Below, one piece after another: positions 17,919-61,316 of a stretch of DNA of 64,000 nt. The stretch comes from Deltaproteobacteria bacterium. GTDB taxonomy: Bacteria; Myxococcota_A; UBA9042; PHBI01; JACKFB01. The notes under the pieces were generated by a model. The model was not told where the DNA came from and did not search any database. It worked only from the letters and a program-made list of their open reading frames with translations. Each line of letters starts with the position of its first letter. Position 1 is the first letter of the stretch. The position numbers and the translations under genes were made by a program. The stretch spans positions 321,061-385,060 of the forward strand of contig JACKFB010000003.1 in the NCBI GenBank assembly GCA_020632695.1. Direction: 5' to 3'.

Positions 17919-18112
17919 GGGGTGACCTCCGGTCGTCCAATGTTGATACCAATGTATGACGCCGGTATGCCAGGGCACAAGTTCCCGGCTACGCGTCGTT
18001 CCCCCGCGCCAACCCTCGTCGAGTCTCTGTCGCGCGCATTGTCTCACTCCATAGTTGGCGCTACGATGCTTTCGATCTGGAGTACGTTTCCACAGCGGGA
18101 GGTTCCAGGCCG

Positions 18113-36902: not shown

Positions 36903-36911
36903 GCCACGCGC

Positions 36912-37904: not shown

Positions 37905-37916
37905 GGTCCCGGCAGA

Positions 37917-39485
37917 TTACGTCCGTCGCCGCCGCGGCGCCAGGAGCGCACCCATGACCAGGCCCAGGGCGGCGCCGCTGGCGTGGCCGAGGAAGCTGAC
38001 CTCGGGGGTGCTGAGGTCGAAGGCGGTGGAGGCGACGAAGAGCAGACCCAGATAGAGGAGCTCGCGCCGCGCGCCCAGGCTGCGGTGGGCGCGCCAGCGG
38101 ATGAACATGATCGACGCGATGGCGCCGAAGAGCGCCATGATGCCGCCCGAGGCGCCGGCGACCGGGTAGGGCGACTCGTTGGCCGGCGTCAGCAGGGTGA
38201 TGAGGGCCATCGAGCCTGGGGCGCAGATGGCGTAGAGCAGCGCCATGCGGGCGCGGCCGAGCACCGACTCGACGAAGCGGCCGAAGATCCAGAGGCCGAA
38301 CATGTTGAGCGTCAGGTGCAGCACGCCGACGTGGAGGAAGGCCGAGGTCACCACGCGCCACCACTCGCCCTCGAGGTAGGCGGCCGGAGCGACCAGGGCG
38401 CCCATGCGCAGGAGGTTGCGGACGTCGGTGGTGCCGCCGGGGATCTCCAGGGCGAAGACGGCCAGGTTCAGGGCGATGAGGGTGGCGGTGACCGCCGGGA
38501 AGGGGCCGCGACCGGGGGCGGCGAGGGTGGTCTGGGCGTCGGGCGGGCCCTCGGCGGCCAGGACGGTGTCGAGCAGGCGCGGCTGTCCGTGGGCGGCCAG
38601 GTCGAAGGTGGGGACCGGCTCGGCCAGGCGGCGTCGAGCCGGGCCGGCGACCAGCGGGTCCTGGCCCAGCGCCAGCGGCACCAGCACGGCCTCAGCGGCC
38701 TGGAGGTCGCCCCGGGCCTGGAGCGCGGTCCCCGTCCAGAAGGCGACGAGGCTGGGGGTGAGCTGGAGGAAGGGGCCTGCCTGGAGCGCGGCGATGGCGT
38801 CGGGCTGGCCGGTGAAGGCGGCATAGACCAGGCGGTTGTTGGCCAGCCAGCCGGGGCCCTGGGCGCGGCCCAGGCGCTCGATGACGCCCTGGTGGACCTC
38901 GGCGAGCCGCGCGGTCTGGCCCAGCTCGCCCAGGGCGCGGACGTAGTTGGAGGCGACCTCCGGCTGCATCAGCAGCTTCTGTCGCTCCGGGGAGGCGTCG
39001 ACCCAGGCGATGAGGTCATGCCAGCGCGTGTCCATGCGCAAGAGCAGCAGCCAGGCCTCCCGCGCGGCGCGGCCGCTGCCCCGGGCCAGGGCCTCGAGGG
39101 CGGCGCGGGCCTCGTCGCGGTGCCCCCGCTCGATGAGCCCCTGGGCGCGCAGCAGCTCCGGCACGGCGGTCCAGCCGTCGAAGGGGTGCAGCACCGCCGC
39201 GACCTGCGCCGCCACCCGGGCCCGGTCGAAGCGGCGTCGCGCGATGAAGCGCGCGGCGGCTCGGTTGGCCAGCGACGGCAGCAACACCATCGGCACGAAC
39301 ACGATGGCCCCGAGCAGCCCCGCGTGCGCCGGCACCACCAGCCAAGCCAGCCCCAACACGACCAACACCAGCCCGTGAGCGAAGAGCCAGCCTGGATAGC
39401 TGCGCCCGTACCGCCGCAGGATCGACACGAAGCCCAGCAGCGACGACGCGCCGACGAACCAGGCGAGAAGGGGTTCCAGCTCCAT
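37917..39485 (-). CDS. rhomboid family intramembrane serine protease with N-terminal helical/TPR-like region
   Basis: C-terminal HLTLNMFGLWIFG and GASGGIMALFGA (GxSG) motifs within six TM helices. Two N-terminal TM helices plus a soluble helical region. Confidence 0.8.
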   Translation of the reverse strand: MELEPLLAWFVGASSLLGFVSILRRYGRSYPGWLFAHGLVLVVLGLAWLVVPAHAGLLGAIVFVPMVLLPSLANRAAARFIARRRFDRARVAAQVAAVLHPFDGWTAVPELLRAQGLIERGHRDEARAALEALARGSGRAAREAWLLLLRMDTRWHDLIAWVDASPERQKLLMQPEVASNYVRALGELGQTARLAEVHQGVIERLGRAQGPGWLANNRLVYAAFTGQPDAIAALQAGPFLQLTPSLVAFWTGTALQARGDLQAAEAVLVPLALGQDPLVAGPARRRLAEPVPTFDLAAHGQPRLLDTVLAAEGPPDAQTTLAAPGRGPFPAVTATLIALNLAVFALEIPGGTTDVRNLLRMGALVAPAAYLEGEWWRVVTSAFLHVGVLHLTLNMFGLWIFGRFVESVLGRARMALLYAICAPGSMALITLLTPANESPYPVAGASGGIMALFGAIASIMFIRWRAHRSLGARRELLYLGLLFVASTAFDLSTPEVSFLGHASGAALGLVMGALLAPRRRRT

Positions 39486-39640
39486 CGCCGCGGGACGCTA
39501 CGTCCCCCCGAGCCGCGCCGCAAGTGTAGCGTCGGTGGCCGGGGCGGCGGCTACGAGCCTCGCTGGCGGCGTCGCTCCCTCGGGTCAGGCCTGCGACGGG
39601 CCTGGGGCCCGACTCGGCCTGCCCTCGCTCACTCCTACCC

Positions 39641-39830
39641 CACGGCGCCCTCGCTCGCCGCTGACGGCGCCTCGGTCAGTGGCGGGGTTGGAGCGTTCGG
39701 CTCGGCCGGGGCCTTCGGCTCGGCCTCGGCTGCGGGGTCGGACTCGGTCTCGGCTTCGGTCTCGGTCTCGGTCTCGGTCTCCGCCTCGGTCCCGGTCTCG
39801 GCCTCGGTCCCGCGGGAGTTCCTGAGCCCC
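39641..39830. repeat. about 190-bp GC-rich repeat element, copy A (ends in (gcctcggtctcg)n)
   Basis: First about 90 bp are near-identical to 40443..40530, then it degenerates into 9-12-bp GC-rich tandem units. Confidence 0.65.
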
Positions 39831-40442: not shown

Positions 40443-40680
40443 GTGCGCCCTCGCTCGCCGCTGCCGGCGCCTCGGACGGGGCGGGTTGGGAGTGTTCGGC
40501 TCGGCCGGGGCCTTCGGCCTGGCCTCGATTGCGGCCCCGGAGGCGGTCTCGGCCCCGGTCTCGGAGGCGGTCTCGGCCTCGGAGGCGGTCTCGGCCTCGG
40601 AGGCGGTCCCGGCCTGGGAGGCGGTCTCGGCTTCGCCTCGGCCCCGGCTCCGGCCTCGGGCCTCGGACGCCCTCTCGGTC
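40443..40680. repeat. about 190-bp GC-rich repeat element, copy B
   Basis: Homologous to copy A, beginning right after the toxin stop. Confidence 0.65.
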
Positions 40681-40749
40681 CCGGCGTCCGTGCTCGCGCC
40701 GAGGGCCTTCCGCTTGACCTTTGCGGTCGGCCTGCCAGATCCTCTGCTC

Positions 40750-41550: not shown

Positions 41551-41575
41551 GATTCGCGGGAGCGGGACCGCCGTC

Positions 41576-41700
41576 GCTGATGACGCCGTTGAAGCCGGGC
41601 TGCTCGTCGCGGACACGCTCGACCTCGCGCAGGTTCGACGCCTCCGAGCGGTTCTGGATGATGTGTCCCTCGTGCACCCGGGCGCCGACCATCGCGTCCA
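41576..41700 (-). pseudogene. 120-bp internal fragment of a ygiQ-like radical SAM gene
   Basis: About 90% identical to 51221..51340 inside the intact ygiQ, in the same orientation. The translated fragment reads [34 protein letters not shown]. Confidence 0.6.
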
Positions 41701-43167: not shown

Positions 43168-46100
43168 ATGACTTCCGAACGCCACCTGGAAGAGTCGTTC
43201 ATCGCCAAGCTCGTCAGCCTCAAGTACGAGTATTGTGAAGACATCGATGATCGGGACAGCCTCGAAACCAACTTCCGCCAGAAGTTCCAAGCGCTCAACC
43301 AGGTCAAGCTGACCGACGGCGAGTTCAAGCGACTCCTCGACGAGATCGTCACGCCGGACGTCTATGAAGCCGCGCGCGCCCTGCGAAATCGGGAGGCGTT
43401 CATCCGCGATGACGGCACCCCGCTCAACTACACGCTTGTCAACATCAAGGACTGGTGCAAGAACAGCTTCCAGGTCATCAACCAGCCGAGCATCAACACG
43501 GACAACAGCCGTCACCGCTACGATGTCCTGCTCCTGATCAATGGCGTCCCTGTGGTCCAGGTCGAGCTCAAGACGCTCGGAATCAGCCCCCGGCGAGCGA
43601 TGGAGCAGATCGTCGCGTACAAGAACGACCCCGGGAACGGCTACTCGAAGACGCTGCTCTGCTTCATCCAGCTCTTCATCGTCAGCAACCGCACGGACAC
43701 TTGGTACTTCGCGAACAACAACGCGCGGCATTTCGCCTTCGACGCCGACGAGCGCTTCCTTCCCATCTACCAGTTCGCCACCGACGACAACACGAAGGTC
43801 ACCCACCTCGATGACTTCGCCGAGGCCTTCCTGGCCAAGTGCACGCTCGGGCACATGATCAGCAAGTACATGGTTCTCATCGCCAGCGAGCAGAAGCTGA
43901 TGATGATGCGGCCGTATCAGATCTACGCCGTGAAGGCCATCGTCGACTCCATCGACCAGGACTGCGGCAACGGTTACATCTGGCATACGACCGGCTCCGG
44001 CAAGACGCTGACCTCCTTCAAGGCCTCGACGCTCCTCAAGACCAACGAGCGCATCCACAAGTGTCTCTTCGTCGTGGACCGCAAGGACCTCGACCGCCAG
44101 ACCCGCGAGGAGTTCAACCGCTTCCAAGAGGGTTGCGTCGAAGAAAACACCAACACCGCGACGCTCGTCGACCGCCTTCTGTCCGATGACTACGCCGACA
44201 AGGTCATCGTCACCACCATCCAGAAGCTCGGCCTGGCCCTCGACCAGAACAGCAAGCAGAGCAAGCAGCACGTCGCTCGGGGCCGGAACACCTACAAGCA
44301 GCGGCTGGAGTCCCTGCGCGACAAGCGCATGGTGTTCATCTTCGACGAGTGCCACCGCTCCCAGTTCGGCGAGAACCACAAGGCCATCAAGGAGTTCTTC
44401 CCCAACTCCCAGCTCTTCGGCTTCACCGGCACGCCGATCTTCAAGGACAACGCCACCGTGAAGCAGGTGGAAGGCGACAAGGCCACGCTGCGTACCACGC
44501 AGGACCTGTTCCAGAAGCAGCTCCACGCCTACACGATCACCCACGCCATCGAGGACCGCAACGTCCTCCGCTTCCACGTCGACTACTACAAGCCCAAGGA
44601 CGCCGCGGTCCCCCCGCCGGGCGAGACGTTGACGAAGAAGGCCGTCGCCCAGGCCATCCTCGACAAGCACGATGCGGCGACAGGAGCCCGGCGCTTCAAC
44701 GCGCTGCTCGCCACCGCTTCCATCAACGACGCCATCGAGTACCACGGCGTCTTCAAGAAGCTGCAAGCCGAGCGCCTGGCGGCAGACCCCGGCTTCGTGC
44801 CCCTGAAGATCGCAGCGGTGTTCTCCCCCCCGGCGGCGGGCAACAGGGACGTCCAGCAGCTCCAAGAGGACCTGCCCCAAGAGAAGGAGGACAACCGCCA
44901 GGATCCCGAGGGAAAGAAGGCCGCGCTCGAGGCCATCATCACCGACTACAACCAGCGGTACGGCACCAACCACGACATCAACAATTTCGACCTCTACTAC
45001 CAGGACGTCCAGCAGCGCATCAAGTACCAGCAGTTCCCCAACCGCGACCTGCCCCAGAAGGGCGCCGAGAAGATCGACATCACCATCGTGGTCGACATGC
45101 TGCTCACCGGCTTCGACGCCCGGTTCCTGAACACGCTCTACGTGGACAAGAATCTCAAGCACCACGGCCTGATCCAGGCCTTCTCGCGCACCAACCGTGT
45201 CCTCAACGCGACGAAGCCCTACGGCCACATCCTCGACTTCCGCCAGCAGCAGAAGAGCGTCGACGCCGCGATCACGCTCTTCTCCGGCGCACAGGCCGAC
45301 CGGGCCCGCGAGATCTGGCTGGTCGACAAGGCCCCCGTCGTCATCGAGAATCTCGAACAGGCCGTCGCCGACCTCGGCGCGTTCATGAAGTCCCAAGGCC
45401 TCGAAGCCAGACCAGAACAGGTGAACAACCTGAAGGGCGACGCCGCCCGAGCGCAGTTCATCAAGCGATTTCGGGAGGTCCAGCGCCTCCAGACGCAGCT
45501 CGACCAGTACACCGACCTCACCGAGGAGCAGCGGGAGCAGATCGAGCAGGCCCTTCCCAAAGACGATCTCCGTGCCTTCCGCGGCGTCTACCTCGAGACG
45601 GCCAAGCGCCTGAGGGAGCAGCAAGCCGTCGCGGGCACTGGCGAAGCGCCGGTCGACCCCGAGCTCGACCAGCTCGACTTCGAGTTCATCCTCTTCGCCT
45701 CCGCGGACATCGACTACGACTACATCATGAAGCTGATCGCGAAGTACTCGGGCCTGGACCCGGAGCGAAGCGAGAAGACCCGCCAGCAGCTCATCGGCAT
45801 GATCCAGTCCGACGCCAAGTTCCTGGACGAGCGCGAGTCGATCACCGAGTACGTCCGCTCGCTTCCGGTGGGCGAGGCGCTCGACGAGTCCGCCGTCCAC
45901 TCCGGGTACGAGAAGTTCAAGGCCGCGCGGCAGGCCAAGGAGCTCGAACGCCTCGCCGAGGCCCATGGCCTGACGAAGGAGTCCCTCTCGGCCTTCGTCG
46001 ACACCATCCTCCAGCGCATGGTGTTCGACGGCGAGCTGCTCACCGACCTGATGGCGCCCCTCGATCTGGGCTGGCGCGAACGCCGCGAGCGAGAGCTCGC

Positions 46101-46194
46101 CCTTATGACGCAGCTCGTCCCGCTCCTGAACAAGAGGGCCCACGGCCGGGAGATCTCAGGCCTGAATGCGTACGAGCATGGGGGAGGCCGGTGA
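43168..46194 (+). CDS. hsdR: type I restriction enzyme R subunit
   Basis: 1008 aa. DEAD/DEAH helicase motifs (TGSGKT, DECHRSQ), an N-terminal restriction domain and the C-terminal HsdR helical domain. GC markedly lower than flanking DNA. Confidence 0.95.
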   Translation: MTSERHLEESFIAKLVSLKYEYCEDIDDRDSLETNFRQKFQALNQVKLTDGEFKRLLDEIVTPDVYEAARALRNREAFIRDDGTPLNYTLVNIKDWCKNSFQVINQPSINTDNSRHRYDVLLLINGVPVVQVELKTLGISPRRAMEQIVAYKNDPGNGYSKTLLCFIQLFIVSNRTDTWYFANNNARHFAFDADERFLPIYQFATDDNTKVTHLDDFAEAFLAKCTLGHMISKYMVLIASEQKLMMMRPYQIYAVKAIVDSIDQDCGNGYIWHTTGSGKTLTSFKASTLLKTNERIHKCLFVVDRKDLDRQTREEFNRFQEGCVEENTNTATLVDRLLSDDYADKVIVTTIQKLGLALDQNSKQSKQHVARGRNTYKQRLESLRDKRMVFIFDECHRSQFGENHKAIKEFFPNSQLFGFTGTPIFKDNATVKQVEGDKATLRTTQDLFQKQLHAYTITHAIEDRNVLRFHVDYYKPKDAAVPPPGETLTKKAVAQAILDKHDAATGARRFNALLATASINDAIEYHGVFKKLQAERLAADPGFVPLKIAAVFSPPAAGNRDVQQLQEDLPQEKEDNRQDPEGKKAALEAIITDYNQRYGTNHDINNFDLYYQDVQQRIKYQQFPNRDLPQKGAEKIDITIVVDMLLTGFDARFLNTLYVDKNLKHHGLIQAFSRTNRVLNATKPYGHILDFRQQQKSVDAAITLFSGAQADRAREIWLVDKAPVVIENLEQAVADLGAFMKSQGLEARPEQVNNLKGDAARAQFIKRFREVQRLQTQLDQYTDLTEEQREQIEQALPKDDLRAFRGVYLETAKRLREQQAVAGTGEAPVDPELDQLDFEFILFASADIDYDYIMKLIAKYSGLDPERSEKTRQQLIGMIQSDAKFLDERESITEYVRSLPVGEALDESAVHSGYEKFKAARQAKELERLAEAHGLTKESLSAFVDTILQRMVFDGELLTDLMAPLDLGWRERRERELALMTQLVPLLNKRAHGREISGLNAYEHGGGR

Positions 46195-47453
46195 TGGCCG
46201 GATCGCCCCCTTCAACCGTACCAAAGCTTCGGTTCCCAGAGTTCCGGGAAGCGCCCGGGTGGGCACGCGATCAAATCGGCAATGTTGCAAGTATTACCAA
46301 AGGAAGGGGTGTCTCAAAGTCGGATGTGACGGAGGCGGGTGCAACTCCCTGCATCAGGTATGCAGAACTGTATACTTGCTATGGCGAGGTGATTCGTCAC
46401 GTGGTATCTCGCACGAACATCTCGCCCGATGAGTTGGTATTCAGCGAACCCGAGGATGTGATTGTGCCCGCGTCAGGAGAGACGCGAGCAGACATCGCGA
46501 GGGCTGCCTGCGTTGTCGACGGAGGCGTCGCACTAGGCAGTGATCTGAATGTCCTGCGGTCGCAGCTTAGCGGTCGGTTTTTCAGCTACGTGCTGAACAG
46601 TCCGCTTCGCCATACGATCGCACTACTCGCACAGGGCGATACGGTTGCTCACCTGTATCCCGCTCAGCTATCGCGTGTTTCGCTGGCTTACCCATCGCGG
46701 CGAGAGCAGCAGAAGATCGCCGACTGCCTCGGCTCGCTGGACGACCTGATTGCCGCCGAGGGCCGGAAGCTGGACACTCTGCGGCAGCACAAGCAAGGGC
46801 TGATGCAGGATCTCTTTCCTCGCATCGATGAGAGCCAGCCCAGAATGCGATTCCCTGAATATGCTCGTGCTCCTGCGTGGAAACCACGGAAGATCTCAGA
46901 TCTTCTCAAGAAGGCGTCCATCCAGGTCATCGTGGAGCCGGATACCAAGTATCAAGAAATCGGCGTGAGATCCCACGGAAATGGCGTGTTTCACAAGACG
47001 CCTGCGCTCGGGTCTCGTCTCGGTGCGAAGCGCGTCTTCGAGGTTGTCGAACAAGCCCTGGTCTTCAATACCGTCTTCGCCTGGGAACGCGCAGTCGCCA
47101 CGACTTCACGCGCGGAAGCAGGCATGATCGCTTCGCACCGATTCCCCATGTATCTCCCTAAGTTCGGGACGTGTGATGTTCGCTTCATGAAGTACGCATT
47201 CCTTACTCAGCGCGGTGCGCAGCTCCTGCACGTGGCATCCCCCGGGGGCGCGGGGCGGAACCGCACCCTCGGTCAAGCAGAACTCGGGGCGCTCGTGATG
47301 ACCGTGCCCAGTCTGGACGAGCAAGTCGCGATTGCGAGTATGATAGACGCAGCCTCGAATCTCATCGAGCTCCAAGCCGCCAATTGGGAACTGATAAAGC
47401 AGTATAAGGCCGGTCTTCTGCAACAGCTCTTCCCATCGCCCGGAGGCCACTGA
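46194..47453 (+). CDS. hsdS: type I restriction-modification specificity subunit
   Basis: 419 aa. Two target-recognition domains separated by conserved coiled regions. ATG overlaps the hsdR stop (TGATG). Confidence 0.85.
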   Translation: MAGSPPSTVPKLRFPEFREAPGWARDQIGNVASITKGRGVSKSDVTEAGATPCIRYAELYTCYGEVIRHVVSRTNISPDELVFSEPEDVIVPASGETRADIARAACVVDGGVALGSDLNVLRSQLSGRFFSYVLNSPLRHTIALLAQGDTVAHLYPAQLSRVSLAYPSRREQQKIADCLGSLDDLIAAEGRKLDTLRQHKQGLMQDLFPRIDESQPRMRFPEYARAPAWKPRKISDLLKKASIQVIVEPDTKYQEIGVRSHGNGVFHKTPALGSRLGAKRVFEVVEQALVFNTVFAWERAVATTSRAEAGMIASHRFPMYLPKFGTCDVRFMKYAFLTQRGAQLLHVASPGGAGRNRTLGQAELGALVMTVPSLDEQVAIASMIDAASNLIELQAANWELIKQYKAGLLQQLFPSPGGH

Positions 47454-47456
47454 ACG

Positions 47457-48635
47457 ATGCGGGACGCGCCAAAGATCCATCTGTACAGAAGCCTGACCAC
47501 GCTCGCAACCAGGCTGCGCAGTGATCTTAGAGACTTCCACAGCGTGCTCCTCTATGCCTATAATAGAACCGGGAAGACACGCCTTTCGATGGAGTTCAAG
47601 AAGCTAGGGAAGCGGAAAGGCAATGGCACCGCTGACACACTATACTTCAATGCATATACCGAGGACCTCTTCATCTGGGAGAATGACCTCGATTCCGACT
47701 GCGACCGCCATCTCCAACTCAATTCCAAGTCGGCGTTTCTGAAGTTACTCGCCGAGTTGGCCCTTGACCTGAGTATTGCTGAATATTTGTCGCGCTACGC
47801 CGATTTCGAATTTGACATCGACTACACCAGTTGGAAGGTGACGTTTCGGAAGGGCGATGAAGAACAGATCAAGATATCTCGAGGCGAGCAGAACATCTTC
47901 ATCTGGTGCATCTTCATGGCGATATGCGAGCAGGTTATCGCGGGACACTTGTCTTATCAATGGGTCAAGTATCTCTACATCGATGATCCCATTTCGTCGC
48001 TGGACGACAACAACGCTATCGCAGTTGCATGCGACCTCGCGGGCTTGCTTCGGAAGGCGGCCGCGAGGCGTGATATGGCGGGTAGTCCTGACCCGCTGCG
48101 AACGGTGATTTCCTCGCATCACGCGCTGTTTTTCAACGTGATGTGTAACGAGTTGAGCAGGAGACCCGAAGGACAGAACAAGGTAGATCACAAGCGATAC
48201 TTCTTGCAGCAGCCCACCGGCGAACGTGTCTACACGCTTCGCGCGACGGACGACACACCCTACTTCCACCACATCGCCACGCTTGCCGAATTGGACCGTT
48301 GCGCGAAGCGGACACGCTCTATACGTACCACTTCAATGCGCTGCGAAGTGTGCTGGAGAAGACGGCCAGCTTCTTCGGCCAGGAACTTCTCCGCCTGCAT
48401 TTTGCTTGCATAGATGAAGACGGGGGTTGAAGGATGAGGCTCTGTCTGCAATCTCGCACTGAACCTGCTGAGTCACGGCAGCTACGCCATCATGAGCCCA
48501 GTCGAGATGGTAGAGGACAACAAGAAGCTGTTTCGGCAAATCCTGGACGATTTCTTGAGCAAGTTTGAGTTCTTGCTTCCAGAGATCCTTCCATTGCCCA
48601 AGGCGAAGCGCCGATGCGAAATGACTGAACACTGA
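47457..48635 (+). pseudogene. ABC-type (AAA_15/AAA_21-like) ATPase gene, interrupted
   Basis: Walker A AYNRTGKT, ABC signature ISRGEQ, Walker B/D-loop LYIDDPISSLD, H-loop SSHH. After about 48.28 kb the plausible reading continues in the +1 frame and returns to the original frame at about 48.44 kb (ending ...KAKRRCEMTEH*). Confidence 0.5.
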
Positions 48636-50234
48636 CCAGCAGAAGCTCGGCAAGACGCTCTGGGCCATCGCCGATCAGCTCCGCGGGGCGATGAACGCGG
48701 ACGACTTTCGCGACTACATGCTCGCGTTCCTGTTCCTCCGCTACCTGTCGGACAACTACGAGCAGGCCGCGAAGAAGGAACTCGGGCGTGACTACCCGGA
48801 TCCAAAGGCGATCGGCAACGGCGGGCGGTCCGCTCTGTCCGTGTGGTACGGACAGAACCGGACGATGTGACGGCATTCGAGAAGCAGATGCGCCTCAAGG
48901 CGCACTATGTGATCCTCCCCAAGTACCTGTGGGCCAGCGTTTCCCACATGGCCCGCACTCAGGACGAGCAGCTTCTGAACACCCTCCAGGCCGGCTTCAA
49001 GTACATCGAGAACGAGTCGTTCGAGAGCACCTTCTCGGGCCTGTTCTCGGAGATCAACCTCGGCTCGGACAAGCTCGGCAAGAACTACTCCGCCCGCAAT
49101 ACGAAGCTCTGCACGATCATCGGCGAGATCGCGAAGGGGCTCGCCGATTTCTCCACCGACAGCGACACGCTGGGAGACGCCTACGAGTACCTGATCGGCC
49201 AGTTCGCCGCAGGCTCGGGCAAGAAGGCGGGCGAGTTCTACACGCCGCAGCGGATCTCGGACATCCTCTCCGGCATCGTCACGCTCGACAGCCAGGAGCC
49301 GGGGGCAGGGACGCGCGAGCGGCTCGGCAGCGTGATGGACTTCGCCTGCGGGTCGGGCTCGTTGCTGCTGAACGTCCGAAAGCGCATGGGGGCGCACGGC
49401 ATCGGGAGGATCTTCGGGCAGGAGAAGAACATCACGACCTACAATCTGGCGCGGATGAACATGCTGCTACATGGGGTGAAGGACTCAGAGTTCGAGATCT
49501 ACCATGGCGACACGCTGACCAACGACTGGGACATGCTCCGCGAGACCAACCCGGCGAAGAAGCCGTACTTCGACGCCGTGGTCGCCAATCCGCCGTTCAG
49601 CTACCGCTGGGACCCGAGTGACGCCTCGGCCGAGGATGTGCGCTTCAAGAACTACGGGCTGGCGCCGAAGTCTGCCGCGGACTTCGCGTTCTTGCTCCAC
49701 GGCTTCCACTACCTCAAAGACGACGGCGTGATGGCCATCATCCTGCCGCATGGGGTGCTGTTCCGCGGCGGTGCTGAGGCGAAGATACGCGCGAAGCTGC
49801 TCGAAGATGGCAACATCGACACCATCATCGGGCTGCCCGCGAACCTGTTCTACTCGACGGGGATCCCGGTCTGCATCCTGGTGCTCAAGAAGTGCAAGAA
49901 GCCCGATGACGTGTTGTTCATCAACGCCGTCGAGCATTTCGACAAGGGCAAGCGGCAGAACGTCCTCAGCGACGAGCACATCGCGAAGATCGTCAGAACC
50001 TACAAGCATCGCAAGGAGGAGACGCGGTACTCGCGGCGGGTGGAGATGGCCGAGATCCAGGCGAACGAGTACAACCTGAACATCTCGCGCTATGTGAGCA
50101 CGGCCAAGCCGGAGGTCGAGATCGACTTGGCGGCGACGCAAGAGGAGCTGGTGCGGATCGAGGACGAGATCCGCAAGGCGAAGGATCTGCACAACGGCTT
50201 CCTCGAGCAGCTCGGTCTGAAACCTCTGCCCTGA
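48621..50234 (+). pseudogene. hsdM: type I R-M N6-adenine DNA methyltransferase subunit, frameshifted
   Basis: ATG 48621 gives MTEH then a stop. The HsdM N-domain (DQQKLGKTLWAIADQLRG...FLFLRYLSD) is read in the +1 frame 48625..48870. The catalytic body with the ANPPF motif is in the original frame from 48843. Confidence 0.75.
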
Positions 50235-50300: not shown

Positions 50301-50346
50301 GTCTCGCCCCGGCCCCGGCCCCGGCCTCGGCCCCGGCCTCGGCGCG
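50301..50346. repeat. (gccccg)n-type simple repeat
   Basis: Hexamer tandem tract between the convergent ends of hsdM and ygiQ. Confidence 0.6.
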
Positions 50347-52563
<2,217 letters not shown>

Positions 52564-52586
52564 GGCGACGCTGTTACCACCGCGCG

Positions 52587-55500
52587 TCAGCCGAGTCGAT
52601 GAAGGCGGCGCCCCGCCGCCAGCTCGTGTCGCTCGCGTCGCCGCGTCCAGGCCCAGCCGAGGAGCAGCGCGGCGAGCCACGCGCCGCCGTCGCCCGTGGT
52701 GCCGGTGCAGCCTCCGCCTCCGCTGCCTCCGTCGCCTCCGCCGCCCGCGCGGTCGGTCTCCGGCTCGGCGCCGACGTCGTCCGGCGACGCGTCGCCGCTG
52801 GCGTCGGGGGGCGCGCCCGCGTCTTCCCGGTCCGCCACGTCGTCGAGCCCCGCGTCGTCCGGCGGCAGTGCCACGCAGAGGCCGGCCTCCGATCGTGTGC
52901 CGGCGGGGCAGCAACCGTCCACGTCAGCGCAGGCGCCGGGCTCGCACTCGGTCCGCTGCAGCTCCTCGCCGCAGCCGCTGGTCTCCACCCACACGTCGCC
53001 GGCGCAGGCTGCGGTCGACGGCAGCTCGCCGCAGTTGCAGGTCCCCGAGTCGGGCAGGCAGCGCCGTGCGCCGACAGCCCCGGACTTGCAGGAGTAGCCG
53101 CTCGGGCAGGCGTCGGCCAGGCCGCAGGGGACCACGCAGAACGCGCCCGTCGGCATCTGGAGGCAGGTGCCGACGAGGCACTCGGTCGTGTCGCACGGAG
53201 CGCAGGCGACTGGCTCGCAGACGCCGTCCGCGCAGGCGGAGCCGAGCTCGCAGGTCAGGGGCGTGCCTGCGCACTCTCCGGCGGAGCAGGTGTCGCCTTG
53301 GGTGCACGGGTCGCCGTCGTCGCAGCTCGCGGTGTTGTCCTGGTGGACGCAGCCGGAGACCGGGTCGCAGGCGTCGGTGGTGCAGGGGTCGCCGTCGTCG
53401 CAGGCGACCGACGTGTGGGTGCAGCCGGAGGCGGGGTCGCAGGCGTCGGCGGTGCAGGCGTCGCCGTCGTCGCAGGCGATGGCGGCGTGGGTGCAGCCGG
53501 AGGCGGGGTCGCAGGCGTCGGTGGTGCAGGCGTCGGCGTCGTCGCAGGCGATGGCGGTGTGGGTGCAGCCGGAGGCGGGGTCGCAGGCGTCGAAGGTGCA
53601 GGCGTCGGCGTCGCTGCAGGGGACCGGGGCGTGGGTGCAGCCGGTCGCCGGGGCGCAGGCGTCGGTGGTGCAGGGGTTGGCGTCGTCACAAGCGACGCTG
53701 GTGTGGGTACACCCGGACGCCGGGGTGCAGGCATCCGAGGTGCAGGCGTTGGTGTCGTCGCAGTCGCGCGCCGCGTGCGTGCAGCCGAGCTTCGGGTCGC
53801 AGGCGTCGGTGGTGCAGGGGTCCGAGTCGTCGCAGGTGACGGCCGAGTGCCCGCAGCCGGTCTTGGGGTCGCAGGTGTCCTGGGTGCAGGCGTCGCCGTC
53901 GTTGCAGGTGGTGGCGGAGTGCACGCAGCCCGAGGCCGGGTCGCAGGCGTCGGTCGTGCATACGTTCGCGTCGTCGCAGTTCACGGGCGCGCTCACGCAG
54001 CCGCTCTTCGGCTTGCAGGTGTTCGCGGTGCAGGCGTCGGCGTCGTCGCAGTCGACGGCGGCGTGCGCGCAGCCGGAGGCCGGGTCGCAGGTGTCCGCGG
54101 TGCAGGCGTTGGCGTCGTCGCAGCTCAGGGGCACGGACACGCACCCGGCGACGGGGTCGCAGGTGTCTGCGGTGCAGGCGTTCCCGTCATCGCAGCCGAT
54201 GGCCGTGTGGACGCACCCGGTCGCGTGGTCGCAGGTGTCGACGGTGCACACGTTGGCGTCGTCGCAGTCGAGGGACGGGTGGGCGCAGCCGGTGGCGGGG
54301 TCGCAGGTGTCTGCGGTGCAGGCGTCCGCGTCGTCGCAGTCCACCAGATCGGTGACGCATCCCGCCGCGGGGTCACAGGTCTCGGTGGTGCAGACGTCCA
54401 GATCCTCGCAGGACACGAGCTGGTGGGTGCAGCCCTCATCCGCGTCGCAGGCGTCGGTGGTGCAGGCGTCACCGTCGTCGCAGTCCACGGGGTCGTGGGT
54501 GCAGCCGGTGGCGGGGTCGCAGCCGTCGGCGGTGCAGGCGTCGCCGTCGTCGCACGGGTTGGGCGTGAAGAGGCAGGCGCCCGAGCTGTCGCAGCCATCA
54601 TCGGTGCACGGGTCACCGTCATCGCAGGCCTGGGCCACGTGGGTGCAGCCCGTCGCCGGGTCGCAGGCGTCGACGGTGCACGCGAGCGCGTCGTCGCAGT
54701 CGACCGCCGTGGTGGCGCAGCCGGTGAGCGGGTCGCAGATGTCGGTGGTGCAAGCGTTCGCGTCGTCGCAGTCGACCAGGTCGGTGACACAGCCCAGCGC
54801 CGGGTCGCAGGTGTCGGTGGTGCAGGCGTCGTCGTCGTCGCAGTCGACGCTGGCGTGCCCGCACCCGGTGGCGGAGTCGCAGGAGTCGACGGTGCAGGCG
54901 TTCGCGTCGTCACAGTCGACGGCGGCGTGCCCGCAGCCGGCGAGCGGGTCGCAGGTGTCGGTGGTGCAGGCGTCGCCGTCGTCGCAGCCGACGCTGGCGT
55001 GGCCACAGCCGGTGGCGGGGTCACAGGTGTCGTTGGTGCAGGCGTCCGCGTCGTCGCAGTCGACGCTGGTGTGCTCGCAGCCGGCGAGCGGGTCGCAGGT
55101 GTCGTTGGTGCAGGCGTCGTCGTCGTCGCAGCCGACGCTGGCGTGGCCACAGCCGGTGGCGGAGTCGCAAGTGTCGTTGGTGCAGGCGTCCGCGTCGTCG
55201 CAGTCGATGGCGGCGTGCCCGCAGCCGGTGGCGGAGTCGCAAGTGTCGTTGGTGCAGGCGTCCGCGTCGTCGCAGTCGACGGCGGCGTGCTCGCAGCCGG
55301 CGGCGGAGTCGCAAGTGTCGTCGGTGCAGGCGTCCGCGTCGTCGCAGTCGACCAGGTCGGTGACGCACCCTGCCGCCGGGTTGCAAGTCTCGTTGGTGCA
55401 GGCGTCCGCGTCGTCGCAGTCGATGGCGGCGTGCTCGCAGCCGGTGGCGGAGTTGCAGGAGTCGGCGGTGCAGGCGTCCGCGTCGTCGCAGTCGACGTTC

Positions 55501-57785
55501 GCGTGCTCGCAGCCGGTCACCGGGTCGCAGGTGTCGACGGTGCAGGCATCGCCGTCGTCGCAGGAGTGGGGCGCGAAGGTGCAGTCGCCCGAGCTGTCGC
55601 AGCCGTCGTCGGTGCACGGGTTGCCATCGTCGCACTGCTGCGCCACATGGGTGCAGCCAGTCCCCGGGTCGCACGCGTCGACCGTGCACGGGAGCGCATC
55701 GTCGCAGTCGATCCCGGCGTGCGCGCAGCCGGTGCCGGGCTCGCAGGTGTCTGCGGTGCAGGCGTCGGCGTCGTCGCAGTCGACCGCGGCGTTGGCGCAG
55801 CCTGTGGCGGGGTCGCAGGTGTCCGCGGTGCAGGCGTCGGCGTCGTCGCAGTCGACGGCGGTGTTCACGCAGCCCGACGCCGGGTTGCAGCTGTCGGTGG
55901 TGCAGGCGTCGGCGTCGTCGCAGTCGGTCCCCGCGTGGGCGCAGCCGGTGGTCGAGTCGCAGGTGTCTGCGGTGCATGCGTCCGCGTCGTCACAGTCGAT
56001 GGTGGCGTTGACGCATCCCGACGCCGGATCGCAGCTGTCGGTCGTGCATGCGTCGGCGTCGTCGCAGTCGACGGTGCGGCGTGGCCGCAGCCGGTGGTCG
56101 AGTCGCAGGTGTCGTTGGTGCAGGCGTCCGCGTCGTCGCAGGTCGCAGGTGTCGTTGGTGCAGGCGTCGGCGTCGTCGCAGTCGACGGCGGCGTGGGCGC
56201 AGCCGGTGGTCGAGTCGCAGGTGTCGTTGGTGCAGGCGTCCGCGTCGTCGCAGTCGACGGCGGCGTTGACGCATCCCGACGCCGGATCGCAGCTGTCGGT
56301 CGTGCATGCGTCGGCGTCGTCGCAGTCGACGGTGGCGTGGCCGCAGCCGGTGGTCGAGTCGCAGGTGTCCGCGGTACAGGCGTCCGCGTCGTCGCACTCG
56401 ACGGCATCGTTCACGCATCCCGAAGCGGAGTCGCAGCTGTCGGAGGTGCAGGCGTCGGCGTCATCACAGTCGACCGCGGTGTGGCCGCATCCGGTGGTCG
56501 AGTCGCAGCTATCGGTGGTGCAGGCGTCAGCGTCGTCGCAGTCGACGGCATCGTTGACGCATCCCGAAGCCGGGTCGCAGCTGTCGGAGGTGCAGGCGTC
56601 GACGTCATCACAGTCGACGGCGGCGTGGCCGCATCCGGTCGTCGGGTCGCAGCTATCGGTGGTGCAGGCGTCGGCGTCGTCGCAGTCGACGGCGGCGTGC
56701 TCGCAGCCGGTGGTCGGGTCGCAGCTATCGGTGGTGCAAGCGTCCGCGTCGTCGCAGTCGACGGCGGCGTGCTCGCAGCCGGTCACCGGGTCGCAGGTGT
56801 CGACGGTGCAAGCATCGCCGTCGTCGCAGGAGTGAGGCTCGAAAGCGCAATCGCCCGAGCTGTCGCAGCCGTCGTCGGTACACGGGTTGCCGTCGTCGCA
56901 CTGCTGAGCCACATGGGTGCAGCCCGTCCCCGGATCGCACGCGTCGACCGTGCACGGGAGCGCATCGTCGCAGTCGATCCCGGCGTGCGCGCACCCGGTG
57001 ACGGGATCGCAGGTGTCTGCGGTGCAAGCGTCCGAGTCGTCGCAGTCGACCGCGGCGTTGGCGCAGCCTGTGGCGGGGTCGCAGGTGTCCGCGGTGCAGG
57101 CGTCGGCGTCGTCACAGTCGACGGCGGCGTTCACGCATCCCGACGCCGGGTTGCAACTGTCGGTGGTGCAGGCGTCGGCGTCGTCGCAGCTCACCGCGGC
57201 GTTGGCGCAGCCCGTGGTGGGGTCGCAGGTGTCTGCGGTGCAGGCGTCGGCGTCGTCACAGTCGAGGGCGGCGTGCTCGCATCCCGAGGCAGAGTCGCAG
57301 CCATCGGTGGTGCAGGCGTCGGCGTCGTCGCAGTCGACCGCGGCGTGCCCGCAGCCGGTTGTCGGGTCGCAGGTGTCGGTGGTGCAGGCGTTGGCGTCGC
57401 CGCAGTCGATCGCGGCGTTGGCGCAGCCGGTAGTGGAGTCGCAGGTGTCTGCGGTGCAGGCATCGGCGTCGTCGCAATCGACGCGCGCGTGGGCGCAGCC
57501 GGTGTGGGGTCGCAGGTGTCTGTGGTGCAGGCGTCGGCGTCGTCGCAGTCGACTGCCGTGTTGACGCACCCCGAGGCGGGGTCGCAGCTGTCGGTGGTGC
57601 AGGCGTCTGCGTCGTCGCAGCTCACCGCCTCGTTGGCGCAGCCTGTGGTGGGGTCGCAGGTGTCTGCGGTGCAGGCGTCGGCGTCGTCGCAGTCGACTGC
57701 CGTGTTGACGCATCCCGATGCCGCGTTGCAGCTGTCGGTGGTGCATGCGTCGGCGTCGTCGCAATCGACGCTCGCGTGGGCGCAC
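52587..57785 (-). CDS. C-terminal portion of giant secreted protein: tandem 24-aa Cys-rich repeats plus MYXO-CTERM-like sorting signal
   Basis: In-frame [19 protein letters not shown] units throughout. Ends with a Cys/Gly-rich stretch, a hydrophobic helix and an Arg cluster ([33 protein letters not shown]). Joined to the upstream portion by a frameshift near 57.49 kb. Confidence 0.75.
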
Positions 57786-58860
57786 CCGGTGCTCGAGTCG
57801 CAGCTGTCGGTGGTGCAGGCGTCCGCGTCGTCACAGTCGAGGGCGGTGTTGACGCACCCCGAGGCGGGGTCGCAGCTGTCGGTGGTGCAGGCGTCGGCGT
57901 CGTCGCAGCTCACCGCGTCGTTGACGCACCCCGAGGCGGGGTCGCAGCTGTCGGTGGTGCAGGCGTCCGCGTCGTCGCAGTCGAGGGCGTCGTTGACGCA
58001 CCCCGAGGCGGGGTCGCAGCTGTCGGTGGTGCAGGCGTCCGCGTCGTCGCAGCTCACCGCGTCGTTGACGCACCCCGAGGCGGGGTCGCAGCTGTCGGTG
58101 GTGCATGCGTCTGCGTCGTCGCAGCTCACGGCGTCGTTGGCGCAGCCTGTGGTGGGGTCGCAGGTGTCTGCGGTGCAGGCGTCGGCGTCGTCGCAGTCGA
58201 CTGCCGTGTTGACGCATCCCGACGCCGCGTTGCAGCTGTCGGTGGTGCATGCGTCTGCGTCGTCGCAATCGACGCTCGCGTGGGCGCACCCGGTGCTCGA
58301 GTCGCAGCTGTCGGTGGTGCAGGCGTCTGCGTCGTCGCAGCTCACCGCGGCGTTGACGCACCCGGAGGCGGGGTCGCAGCTGTCGGTGGTGCAGGCGTCG
58401 GCGTCGTCGCAGCTCACGCCGGTGTGGATGCAGCCCGCGGCCGCGTTGCAGGTGTCCGCGGTGCACGCGTCCGCGTCGTCGCAGTCGACCGCCGCGGTGA
58501 CGCACCCCGTCGCCGGCTCGCAGGTGTCCGCGGTGCACGCGTCCGCGTCGTCGCAGTCGACCGCGGCGTTGACGCAGCCGGTCGCAGGGTCGCAGCTGTC
58601 GACGGTGCAGGCGTCCGCGTCGTCGCAGCTCACGCCGGTGTGGACGCAGCCCACGGCCGGGCTGCATGTGTCATCGGTGCACGCGTTGGCGTCGTCGCAG
58701 TCCACGGCCGCTCGCACGCACCCGCTGCCCGAGTCGCAGACATCGCTGGTGCACGCGTCGTCGTCGTCGCAGTCGACCGGCACCACCACGCACGTGCCCG
58801 CGGCTCCGCAGCTCGTCTCGGTGCAGGCGTCTCCGTCCTCGCACGCCGCGTCGCTCAGCA
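53285..58860 (-). repeat. array of about 72-bp coding tandem repeats (roughly 75-80 units, estimated from length not counted)
   Basis: Unit CDD(A/G)DACT.D.CDP..GC.H..V(D/S) with 4 Cys per 24 aa. Very high nucleotide-level similarity between units. Confidence 0.8.
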
Positions 58861-60901
58861 CGCAGCCCACACAGCACGGCGCCGACTCGCCCCCGTCGCA
58901 CTGCTCACCAGGCTCGACCGTCCCGTTCCCACAGGTCGCCACGATCGCCGCCACCGCCGACGGCGCGATGATCAGCCCGGCGCCCCACACATCGCTCGGC
59001 CCTCCCGCGCCGGTGGTCGTCGTGAGCGCCGTCCGCACCTCCGCCGGAGACAGCGCCGGGTTCACCTGCAGCATCAACGCCACGACCCCCGCGGCCGCCG
59101 GCGCGGCCATGCTGGTGCCGCGCAACGCCGCGTACTCCGCGGGACCGCTGCCATCGAGATACAGGCCGTCGCTGTCGACGATGTAGTACGTCTCCAACGG
59201 GGCCAACGGGTTTCGCGCCGAGATCGTCGCCGCGCCGGGCGCCGCCAGCGTGGGCATGGCGGCGCCGTCGATCCGCGGGCCGTGACTGCTGAAGGTCGCC
59301 ATCTGCCCGTTGGCGTCCTCGGGGAAGCTCCACGACTGCCCGAAATAGTCCGTCCAGGACCGGGCGTGGACGAGCGCCCCGACCGAGATGGCGAGATCCG
59401 CAAGCGCCGGACTGGCGATCGTGTACCCCGCGTCCGCGCCGCCGAAGCTCGCCTCGAGCTCCCACGCGTAGAGATGAACCAACGCCGCAGGCCCCGCCGA
59501 GCCGTCGCGGGTGACCGTCAGCGTGTAGGTGCGCGTGGTCCCCGACGGGACGGCCGGGTGCAGCTCGTAGGTGCGCGCGCGGGTTCCTCGCACGCTCGTG
59601 TCGTCGTAGATGGACGCGAACGACTCTCCCACCGTGAGGCCCCCGGCGACCGCGACCGCCTCCGCGGAGCCGCCCGCGTCGGGGCGCCACACCAGGTTCA
59701 CCCGGATGGACGCGCCCGCGTCCAAGGTGCCGAACCGATTGTCGACCGTCAGCGCGAAGACCCGCGACTCGCTCGGGTTCAACGAGGCCGACGCGTGCCG
59801 GGCGGCGTCTGCGTCGTTGCCCGCCGCGATGACGACGGTCACCCCCGCCGCGACCGCCGCATCCACCGCCTGGCTCTTGGCGTCGCTGCCGTCCGGGAAG
59901 ACGGCCTGCCCGCCGTAGCTCATCGAGAACACCCCGCAGCCCACCTGGGAGGACCGGGTGACCGCCTTCACGATGTCGGCGTCGCTGGACGTCGCGTCGA
60001 CGTCGTTGCCGATCTTGAAGAAGCGCAGTGACGCCCCCGGCGCCACCCCCGCGTACTTGCCGTACGAGCGCGCCCCGGTGCCGACCACCGTGCCGGTCAC
60101 GTGGGTGCCGTGGGTCGAGACCGTGCTCGAGACCGCCGTGCTCCAGTCGCTCGGGTCCAGGCCGTCGGTCACGTCCCGGGCCTCGACGAGGTTCGGGAAG
60201 TCGCCATGGAACACGTAGAGCTCGGAGTCCGCGACACACACCGACACCCCCGCCCCGTTGGCCGCCGGAACGCCGTTCCCGCTCCACACCGACGGCACGG
60301 CCATCGCCCCCCGCGCGTTCTGGTTCGTCGGGCGGTTGACCCCCTCGGCCGATCGCACGGCCACCACGCCCGGATATCGCGCCAGCGCCGCCAGCGACGC
60401 GTAGGGGACCTCCATCAGGTGGAAGCCGTAGGGATGATGGCCGGGCACCGCGGGCACGAAGATGCTGTGGCTGACGCGGATCCCCTGCGCTTCGAGCTCG
60501 GCCAGCTCCTCATCGGAGAGGCGCTCGCGCACGTACACCGCGCAGCTCTCGCGGTCGGCGTGGGACGGATCCAGGCCCGCGCGACGCAGGGTCCGCTCCC
60601 GCGACCCTTCGGGCATCCCCGCCACCTCGTCGCGCAGCCGCCGGTGGTAGTCGATCATCCCGCCGATGAGCGCGGCGCTCTCCCTGGGCGGCGACGGGTC
60701 CGCTGGCGACGCGGCGGGCGCCGGCTGCAGCGAAGGCAGCGCGCTCGCATGAAGGTCCGTATCCTGACCCGCGGCGGCGGCCGGCGGGTGCGCGCCGTCG
60801 AGCTCGCCGGGTCGCTCGCCCCCCGAGCAGGCGGCGAGCAGCAGTCCCGACAACAAGCTCCGCACGAAACGGGCCGCCAAAGGCCTGACGCAAGATGGCA
60901 T
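57191..60901 (-). CDS. N-terminal portion of giant secreted protein: lipoprotein signal plus S8 subtilisin-like peptidase plus start of Cys-rich repeat array
   Basis: Lipobox LLAAC. S8 His motif HGTHVTGTVVG, Asn motif AAGNDAD, Ser motif GTSMAAPAAAGVVAL. Repeats begin near 58.86 kb. The last about 100 codons of this ORF are an out-of-frame read-through. Confidence 0.8.
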   Translation of the reverse strand: MPSCVRPLAARFVRSLLSGLLLAACSGGERPGELDGAHPPAAAAGQDTDLHASALPSLQPAPAASPADPSPPRESAALIGGMIDYHRRLRDEVAGMPEGSRERTLRRAGLDPSHADRESCAVYVRERLSDEELAELEAQGIRVSHSIFVPAVPGHHPYGFHLMEVPYASLAALARYPGVVAVRSAEGVNRPTNQNARGAMAVPSVWSGNGVPAANGAGVSVCVADSELYVFHGDFPNLVEARDVTDGLDPSDWSTAVSSTVSTHGTHVTGTVVGTGARSYGKYAGVAPGASLRFFKIGNDVDATSSDADIVKAVTRSSQVGCGVFSMSYGGQAVFPDGSDAKSQAVDAAVAAGVTVVIAAGNDADAARHASASLNPSESRVFALTVDNRFGTLDAGASIRVNLVWRPDAGGSAEAVAVAGGLTVGESFASIYDDTSVRGTRARTYELHPAVPSGTTRTYTLTVTRDGSAGPAALVHLYAWELEASFGGADAGYTIASPALADLAISVGALVHARSWTDYFGQSWSFPEDANGQMATFSSHGPRIDGAAMPTLAAPGAATISARNPLAPLETYYIVDSDGLYLDGSGPAEYAALRGTSMAAPAAAGVVALMLQVNPALSPAEVRTALTTTTGAGGPSDVWGAGLIIAPSAVAAIVATCGNGTVEPGEQCDGGESAPCCVGCVLSDAACEDGDACTETSCGAAGTCVVVPVDCDDDDACTSDVCDSGSGCVRAAVDCDDANACTDDTCSPAVGCVHTGVSCDDADACTVDSCDPATGCVNAAVDCDDADACTADTCEPATGCVTAAVDCDDADACTADTCNAAAGCIHTGVSCDDADACTTDSCDPASGCVNAAVSCDDADACTTDSCDSSTGCAHASVDCDDADACTTDSCNAASGCVNTAVDCDDADACTADTCDPTTGCANDAVSCDDADACTTDSCDPASGCVNDAVSCDDADACTTDSCDPASGCVNDALDCDDADACTTDSCDPASGCVNDAVSCDDADACTTDSCDPASGCVNTALDCDDADACTTDSCDSSTGCAHASVDCDDADACTTDSCNAASGCVNTAVDCDDADACTADTCDPTTGCANEAVSCDDADACTTDSCDPASGCVNTAVDCDDADACTTDTCDPTPAAPTRASIATTPMPAPQTPATPLPAAPTPRSTAATPTPAPPTPATRQPAAGTPRSTATTPTPAPPMAATLPRDASTPPSTVTTPTPAPQTPATPPRAAPTPR

Positions 60902-61316
60902 CGAGTCTCCATGTCGTCCGACCGGGCGACCCACGGGAGCGAAGTTTTCCGGGACAGGACCTTCTAGCCATGCGCCCGCACGCGGTCAATGAGCAGTCCA
61001 CTCTCGCTCGGAACCCGCTCCGAGCCGGAGGCGACCCCGCCGCTGGGCGCTCCCCGCCGCCGAGCAGGGCCCGGCCGCCACCGGAAAGCTGCCCGGGCGA
61101 CCGAGTGGCTGGACCTGCGCGGAATCAGACCGCATAGTGTCGCCCACGATCGCTTCAGCCGCGGAGCGTGCGAGGCCTCTCCGGAGACTACCGGCCGCGG
61201 TCCGGCAGCGGTCCCCGACACCCATGCCAGAATCAGCCAGTCCCGCCGCGGCGGGACGCGTCAGCGGGCAGCCCATCGCGGCCGCGCGAGGGCGCCGCAC
61301 GACCAGAGGAGCCTCC

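Follow-up and report, generated by a model that had tools for sequence, protein, structure and literature searches.

A Restriction-Modification Cassette With an Embedded Anticodon Nuclease Gene

The DNA analyzed here, called the window throughout, is a stretch of 64,000 nucleotides (nt) of contig JACKFB010000003.1 (positions 321,061 to 385,060) from the Deltaproteobacteria bacterium assembly GCA_020632695.1; the source sequence is the consensus of a metagenome-assembled genome (MAG), with a contig of 433,437 nt. Four plus-strand genes at 43.1-50.25 kb have a guanine-cytosine (GC) content of 55-65%, compared with ~73% for the window, and judging from their domains and order they are a standard four-gene defense cassette, hsdR-hsdS-prrC-hsdM, that combines a predicted type IC (EcoR124/EcoprrI-like) restriction-modification (R-M) system with PrrC, a putative anticodon nuclease. 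As written, prrC and hsdM are both broken by frameshifts, and the origin of these breaks is the subject of this report.

The first gene, hsdR (43168-46194), is intact and encodes a type IC restriction subunit of 1008 amino acids (aa; NCBI MCB9727865.1). Its nuclease, superfamily 2 motor, helical and C-terminal parts are all present (Pfam HSDR_N, SWI2_SNF2/ResIII, T1R_D3-like and EcoR124_C), it matches the PADLOC REase_I model with 1110 bits, its closest solved structure in PDB is the HsdR of EcoR124I/II (E ~1e-120), and relatives align across residues 1-1008 with 80-83% identity. The start of hsdS (46194-47453) overlaps the hsdR stop; this gene is also intact and encodes a specificity subunit of 419 aa (Pfam Methylase_S; NCBI MCB9727866.1, named restriction endonuclease subunit S). 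The frame-broken prrC follows at 47457-48624, where its inferred ancestral stop, TGA 48622-48624, overlaps the ATG of hsdM, the type IC methyltransferase subunit gene (48621-50234), which is frame-broken twice. Unlike hsdR and hsdS, the prrC and hsdM of this assembly have no NCBI protein records. The cassette is mosaic in composition, with a GC content at third codon positions (GC3) of 0.90-0.92 in hsdR and hsdM and 0.65-0.76 in hsdS and prrC.

The identity of HsdM is evident in spite of its frame breaks. Pfam HsdM_N is matched at 48634-48858 in the +1 frame (E=1.3e-14) and N6_Mtase in the first frame (E=3e-104), and the product also matches TIGR00497 (hsdM). After frame correction the protein has 537 aa, gives a nearly full-length match to the EcoR124II M protein (E=2e-86), and aligns without gaps, at 86-88% identity, to intact homologues of 537-545 aa.

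An earlier, sequence-only reading of this DNA had described the gene upstream of hsdM as an ABC-type ATPase of the AAA_15/AAA_21 kind with its motifs intact. The motifs are indeed complete, with Walker A NRTGKT, signature ISRGEQ, Walker B/D-loop LYIDDPISSLD and His switch SSHH, and residues 1-217 are identical to those of an intact homologue (P0001; 95% identical to the window protein), with only four differences within residues 218-283. The family assignment was too general. The product matches Pfam AAA_13, and the PADLOC PrrC model fits the first 280 residues with E=1.1e-97 (covering positions 18-260) and P0001 with E=1.6e-128. A database search returned 7,959 PrrC homologues, usually 382 aa long, several of which are named ‘anticodon nuclease’ by NCBI. 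Neither a search of solved structures nor one of NCBIfam gave a counterpart (no sequence match to PrrC and no matching PrrC model, respectively). The “ABC ATPase” is thus identified by homology as PrrC, a predicted anticodon nuclease, and the damaged part of the gene encodes the toxic C-terminal nuclease domain. The correct identity alters what is at stake biologically: the damage falls on the toxin domain of an abortive-infection nuclease, which the neighboring R-M enzyme keeps silent. In the E. coli prototype, release of PrrC by a phage anti-restriction factor brings translation in the infected cell to a halt.

In Escherichia coli, PrrC is kept latent by EcoprrI, is activated by the T4 anti-restriction peptide Stp, and cleaves tRNA-Lys (PMC1484252, PMC3458546, PMC3874165); its nuclease triad is Arg320-Glu324-His356 (PMC1484252) and its gene is embedded in the prrABD operon (PMC3874165). 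A prrC gene is always linked to a silencing R-M locus (PMC3458546), a linkage also found here, with prrC placed between the hsdS and hsdM genes in a type IC cassette; the protein is potentially cytotoxic once free of its R-M partner (PMC3458546, PMC1484252). The window resembles the E. coli prr locus (EcoprrI, composed of prrA, prrB and prrD, plus PrrC) in the plan of the protein, an ABC-type nucleoside triphosphatase (NTPase) N-domain followed by a C-terminal Arg-x3-Glu...His nuclease domain, and in the embedding of prrC within a type IC hsd operon beside hsdS. The distance from Arg to His is 37 residues in the window’s PrrC family and 36 in EcoPrrC. It differs from that locus in the order hsdR-hsdS-prrC-hsdM, in the overlap of the prrC stop with the hsdM start, and in the frame-broken state of the window copy. 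We take the E. coli order to be hsdM-hsdS-prrC-hsdR, with prrC between hsdS and hsdR, and EcoPrrC to be 396 aa in length, a size similar to the 382 aa typical of the window’s family.

EcoR124I/II, a type IC enzyme with a characterized structure, shares with the window the EcoR124_C domain of HsdR and has HsdR and HsdM counterparts that both window subunits match; unlike the window it has no embedded prrC, and the target-recognition domains of hsdS are unrelated, as usual. RloC, a distant PrrC homologue that is Rad50-like and excises the wobble nucleotide, has the same plan of ABC ATPase plus anticodon nuclease (PMC3458546, PMC2610378), but is much longer, has an insert with a coiled coil and a zinc hook, and seldom has R-M genes linked to it. 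Since the window’s family is 382 aa long, without an RloC-type insert and R-M linked, it belongs with PrrC and not with RloC. The partnership of PrrC with type IC enzymes is itself already known.

Lesions in prrC and hsdM

Lesions were placed by DNA alignment of the window with a short-read contig carrying an intact prrC (L001, described below) and 10 intact relatives. At least seven insertions or deletions (indels) lie within 549 nt (48308-48856), five of them in the 3′ third of prrC and two within 240 nt of the hsdM start. Up to 48307 the prrC gene is intact (47457-48307, the ABC-type NTPase domain and the start of the C-domain). As read, it is an open reading frame (ORF) of 318 codons (47457-48413) closed by TAG 48411-48413. 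It leaves frame 0 near 48308, and homologous sequence stands in frame 0 again only from 48447.

The first prrC lesion is a loss of one base at 48308-48309 that moves the reading from frame 0 to frame 2, the window having GCGAAG-CGGAC where L001 has TCGAAATCCGAC. The catalytic Arg (48344-48346) and Glu (48356-48358) codons, in the context FNALRSVLEK, are accordingly found in frame 2. Lesions 2 and 3 share a scrambled stretch (48385-48420) with 17 extra bases, best read as a +5 insertion (CTGCA, ~48395-48399) followed by a +12 insertion (CATAGATGAAGA, 48409-48420) that contains a TGA (48415-48417) in the local frame; this scramble also replaces the conserved Asp in the EDLR motif. The fourth lesion adds two bases at 48445-48446, with adjacent substitutions to 48454, and turns the invariant Tyr and Arg of YNRALNLLSHG into Cys and Leu. 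The catalytic His codon (LLSHG, 48474-48476) then follows in frame 0, 130 nt from the Arg codon instead of 111. Lesion 5 (48609-48620) is a net +1 in the variable C-terminal tail, after which a frame-0 reading misses the ATGA stop. No template for the inserted 12-nt and 5-nt sequences was found in the window, on either strand and with up to 3 mismatches, in a search for duplication, inversion and gene conversion.

These events leave prrC without a continuous reading. The net change up to the ancestral stop is +16 nt, so that the register is not regained, and stops at 48428 (frame 2) and 48435 (frame 0) make a direct shift from frame 2 to frame 0 impossible and force a passage through frame 1. 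The spacing from Arg to His, a 43-residue block from FNALR to LLSHG, is fixed in 116 of 120 homologues, and the window has 19 extra bases there. As written, the Arg-Glu-His triad is spread over more than one reading frame with in-frame stops between its members, and the product would be without nuclease activity. Membership of the gene in PrrC by descent is nevertheless clear, because the nuclease domain is recognizable and is intact in the near-identical L001. The sequence-only reading had put the gene out of frame between roughly 48.28 and 48.44 kb; this location was right (~48.3-48.45 kb), whereas the simple pair of shifts it envisaged is replaced by five events relative to L001.

In hsdM, a reading from ATG 48621 gives MTEH and then TGA 48633-48635, an ORF of 4 codons, and the N-domain (DQQKLGKTLWAIADQLRG...FLFLRYLSD) is found in the +1 frame at 48634-48858, as had been noticed from the sequence and as three-frame translation and the Pfam HsdM_N match now confirm. 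An insertion of one base near codon 5 had also been proposed, and the alignment places one extra base at ~48628-48633; this sixth lesion (~48628-48635) lies between the start codon and GACCAG, after codon 3-4, and creates the TGA at 48633-48635. The predicted loss of one base about 200 nt downstream corresponds to lesion 7 (48856-48860), where one C is missing at 48858-48859 (AACCGG here, AACCCCG or AACCCGG in relatives). The methyltransferase body does return to the first frame, from ~48858, and frame 1 is closed by TGA 48868-48870 after this lesion. Use of CTG 48625 as the hsdM start was considered and rejected; it would cure the first frameshift and leave the second, and the starts of all relatives align with ATG 48621. 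Both domains of HsdM are present and perfectly conserved, ANPPF included, but in the sequence as written no single ORF spans them.

The two genes had been interpreted as carrying pairs of compensating frameshifts. This does not hold, as there are at least seven events with in-frame stops among them and no frame reads through: every shifted stretch meets a stop (TGA 48633; 48428; 48415 and 48460; 48868). The apparent pairing in hsdM carries no signal, because with two random one-base indels the frame comes back, through opposite signs, in half of all cases. Type I enzymes have the composition R2M2S1, and HsdR requires HsdM to cut; the cassette as written would therefore be without restriction or modification activity, in agreement with the sequence-only reading. 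Its further step, that the system is probably inactive, is not established, given that the sequence is a MAG consensus and that an intact prrC occurs on a 100% identical hsdS background in short reads.

Intact Relatives of the Cassette

The hsdR-hsdS-prrC-hsdM arrangement is uniform and widespread over phyla. The order was the same in 69/69 complete related loci from species-representative genomes of many phyla, and in the aligned relatives prrC and hsdM overlap, stop to start, in an ATGA or GTGA. A single unbroken prrC frame is present in 159 of 162 related loci and a split frame in none; two of the remaining three are cut by a contig end, and one (L025) is without the N-terminal 27 residues. 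Of the 124 hsdM copies that no contig end truncates, 115 are single full-length matches. Four loci have hsdM split into two frames (L028, L036, L044 and L067); MAGs make up three of the four, and the name of L067 marks it as a nanopore bin.

At the DNA level, identity across phyla is 83-89% for hsdR and hsdM and ~70-75% for prrC, and hsdS diverges freely. Organisms of other phyla have an hsdM 5′ end that is ~89% identical. Recombination has often made the cassettes of this family mosaic, with hsdR and prrC-hsdM blocks common to loci that have different hsdS genes.

A Short-Read Copy and a Divergent Patch

Part of the cassette is also found on a Logan short-read contig from run SRR12358676 (L001; 2,535 nt, 98% identical), which encodes an intact 382-aa PrrC. 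A second Logan contig (L002) comes from run SRR12358675, and hsdS is 100% identical in the window, L001 and L002. Identity of the window to L001 is 100% over 1,988 nt (46119-48106: the end of hsdR, hsdS and the 5′ part of prrC) and again at 48629-48673, and all 75 differing alignment columns fall in the divergent patch between them (48107-48628). L001 and L002 both begin exactly at 46119, 75 nt before the hsdR stop, and L001 ends at 48673, 53 nt into hsdM and within the lesion-bearing stretch. These ends coincide with the edges of the conserved parts of hsdR and hsdM, a pattern that k-mers in common with other community members would produce.

The patch has two kinds of differences. In 48105-48385, 11 of 15 differing codons are synonymous (P ~1e-4), and the window keeps the family-consensus residues H271 and A274 where L001 has the rare Asp and Asn; the window-allele single-nucleotide polymorphisms (SNPs) in the patch include CAC at 48267 and GCC at 48276. 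The synonymous divergence (Ks) in this part is ~0.16; at such a rate the 1.9 kb before it would be predicted to contain ~76 synonymous differences, against zero observed. This contrast marks the boundary at 48106/48107 as a real mosaic edge, and the differences in 48105-48385 look like true allelic divergence under purifying selection. Window differences from L001 go toward GC by 17:3. From 48385 on, the differences are compact scrambles, in which adjacent mismatch runs stand by or with indels, between runs identical to L001.

Three accounts of the patch were discarded. Random errors added to L001 are ruled out by the synonymous bias and by the consensus residues at sites where L001 is derived. 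Import from another known clade is ruled out because the nearest relative of the patch is still L001 (90%), all others being at ~70%. A native, GC-ameliorated patch is unsupported, since composition breaks at the hsdR/hsdS and prrC/hsdM junctions and not at 48107. In searches for the window alleles themselves, the exact 318-aa truncated PrrC, three candidate truncated HsdM ORFs and five frame-corrected HsdM variants were not on record; GTDB species representatives and JGI metagenomes held nothing closer than 74% to PrrC, and two HsdM protein searches gave no match above 88%.

Exact look-ups of two host proteins of the MAG returned Logan short-read contigs from only SRR12358675 and SRR12358676, which match the window without gaps at 100% over 1,093 nt and at 99.6% over 2,464 nt. 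The latter comparison, of window 36554-39017 with short-read contig L163, has 9 scattered SNPs and no indels, and this indicates coexisting strains at ~0.4% divergence in the population. The short-read data of the only runs returned for the host proteins thus also contain the cassette, with its hypervariable hsdS identical and its prrC intact. The MAG may stem from an activated-sludge hybrid study, which its accession dates and the consecutive pair of short-read runs would fit. The study in question combined nanopore reads of 86.7% accuracy, Flye assembly and per-bin Unicycler re-assembly with two Illumina libraries (PMC8518188).

Clustering of the Lesions and Absence of Other Decay

Under a uniform model, the confinement of seven indels to 549 nt of a 7,067-nt cassette has P ~1.4e-6. 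The rest of the cassette is free of lesions, including hsdR (3 kb), hsdS and the body of hsdM (1.4 kb). Across 153 homologues, 262 columns reach a conservation of 97% or more, and frame-corrected HsdM deviates at 0 of them. In PrrC after frame correction, conserved columns show just three changes peculiar to the window (Asp to Leu, Tyr to Cys and Arg to Leu), and each sits in a scramble beside an indel. A long-dead pseudogene would show scattered substitutions at conserved sites and lesions elsewhere in the cassette; neither is seen, and a single local cause is therefore needed.

The reading frames of the whole window were surveyed by seven-state GC3 segmentation, with a check of stops and starts at each same-strand frame switch. 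In the window’s ordinary host genes this survey found no unexplained frame switches, only normal gene boundaries. On this survey of the window a general indel problem of the assembly is rejected; the breaks outside the cassette are confined to one repeat gene. This is a giant Cys-rich tandem-repeat gene (52587-60985, minus strand) of 21-aa units, with three frame breaks: a one-base loss near 57490 (ACCACC to ACACC), and a pair near 56150 from an out-of-register junction at a CTGCGAC microhomology, by which ~32 nt of a 63-nt unit are gone. The repeat gene is another place where short reads are hard to place.

Explanations for the Lesions

On balance, we consider it somewhat more probable that the seven indels are local consensus errors, at a strain-variable and hard-to-assemble stretch of the MAG, than that they are biological. 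Assembly error had been one of several options in the sequence-only reading and is now the leading explanation. The stretch joins a strain-variable prrC C-domain to an hsdM 5′ end that many organisms share almost unchanged; accurate short reads would be hard to place there, and a lower-accuracy long-read consensus may have been retained. We infer the sequencing and assembly technology in this account, and the organism itself would presumably carry intact, working genes. An hsdM 5′ end that is ~89% identical in other phyla leads one to expect graph tangles and cross-mapping at this point. Consensus error is further favored by the combination of a MAG with very long contigs and a strain bubble (48107-48628) beside the conserved hsdM start, by the end of L001 inside the stretch, by the restriction of other frame breaks to the tandem-repeat gene, and by the intact state of the dominant short-read allele. 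Base rates among relatives point the same way, prrC being unbroken in nearly all related loci and three of the four hsdM splits falling in MAGs. The pattern has much in common with the residual indel errors of long-read and hybrid metagenome assemblies, which are small, occur where short reads cannot polish, and have perfect flanks and otherwise intact gene content; the further breaks in the tandem-repeat gene of the same window are also alike. Read noise alone, however, leaves the 5-nt and 12-nt insertions and the synonymous-biased real SNPs unexplained. Several other points tell against consensus error. A genuinely different allele underlies the patch and could itself be dead; 5-nt and 12-nt insertions and multi-base scrambles are atypical of nanopore homopolymer errors, only the loss in the C-run at 48858 being typical; an intact full-length hsdM with this sequence is not on record; and the supplements of the activated-sludge study (PMC8518188) mention neither the two runs nor the locus-tag prefix of the MAG (H6746). 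A literature search for the run accessions SRR12358675 and SRR12358676 found no paper.

A less probable reading, and one to be taken seriously, is that the lesions are real and the cassette is dead in one strain, where a single tract, brought in by recombination with a decayed allele or made by error-prone repair, would have replaced ~48.1-48.9 kb and destroyed the PrrC nuclease domain and the hsdM start together in one event. Such co-inactivation would be sensible, since free PrrC is harmful and loss of hsdM would be tolerable only if prrC were disabled earlier or simultaneously. True allelic divergence with a razor-sharp boundary (Ks ~0.16 against zero) is a signature of recombination, mosaic recombination is frequent in the family, and strain microdiversity is present (the 9 SNPs in 2.46 kb); in addition, the 17:3 bias toward GC is as expected for sequence resident in a host of 73% GC, and the longer insertions are more like mutations than like noise in a consensus. 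A tract that had existed long enough to gather seven indels should, on the other hand, be diffusely decayed, whereas HsdM deviates at 0/262 sites and PrrC is hit only in the scrambles. Against real lesions also stand the lesion-free hsdR, hsdS and hsdM body, the lack of any prrC frame split among 162 related loci, the intact dominant short-read allele in the organism’s samples, and the nature of the source as a MAG consensus. A more specific version, in which a short mutagenic repair or gene-conversion tract scrambled the PrrC nuclease domain and the hsdM start in one step and left other strains intact, seems unlikely. If true, it would illustrate in nature the ‘addiction’ logic of PrrC, whereby a cell can shed the silencing R-M partner only along with the toxin, and it would also be a case of localized hypermutation with untouched flanks. 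The causes might also differ between the genes, the prrC C-domain being truly decayed and the two single-base hsdM indels being consensus errors, or the reverse. The complexity of the prrC lesions (scrambles, +5 and +12) next to single-base lesions, one in a C-run, in an otherwise perfect hsdM would fit this; it requires two independent causes that abut within 550 nt, and with prrC alone dead the R-M system would still work, with hsdM alone dead PrrC would be unsilenced. We regard such a mixture as very unlikely. A regulatory origin, by which phase variation, programmed ribosomal frameshifting or second-site compensation would yield full-length or nearly full-length proteins, is scarcely credible. 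Phase-variable type I systems do exist in other bacteria, and hsdM does regain its original frame after 225 nt. Yet no lesion lies in a homopolymer or simple-sequence repeat, the longest run involved being CC, which removes the phase-variable switch that the sequence-only reading had entertained; a search of 39-53 kb gave no inverted hsdS repeats; each shifted stretch is ended by a stop within a few codons, which also disposes of the second-site partial rescue it had considered; prrC ends with a net +16 nt; and in relatives prrC and hsdM are single ORFs (159/162 loci and 115/124 copies, respectively). The cassette was on these grounds assigned neither to phase-variable type I R-M systems nor to programmed frameshifting.

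Should the lesions be real, restriction and modification would both be lost, with HsdR inert in the absence of an M2S core, and no PrrC nuclease would be made. A tract over the 3′ end of prrC and the 5′ end of hsdM, by disabling both genes at once, would offer the safe route to be expected for losing the system, and the locus would still be an ordinary pseudogenized member of a known system. As a caution, a cluster of frameshifts in a MAG defense cassette should not be equated with inactivation, phase variation or compensatory evolution unless the reads support it.

Surroundings of the Cassette

The intact ygiQ gene (radical-SAM; 50347-52602, minus strand; TIGR03904, E=5e-254) lies beyond hsdM. 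A fragment of 111 nt (41565-41675), located 9.65 kb upstream, is 90% identical to an internal part of ygiQ (51218-51331) and in direct orientation to it. Between the two copies lie the R-M/PrrC island and some further ORFs; the fragment may be the scar of an insertion or partial duplication. Short GC-rich repeat families with periods of 12 and 18 nt occur at 39640-39830, 40460-40690 and 50310-50342. They resemble CGGCCTCGG... and read as PR/GR/SE runs, and one copy comes directly after the stop codon of hsdM, where the island ends on the right. Farther away, the product of 18528-19232 (plus strand) is named RES family NAD+ phosphorylase by NCBI and its gene is overlapped by the preceding ORF (17960-18547), which suggests a RES-type toxin-antitoxin pair at 17960-19232.

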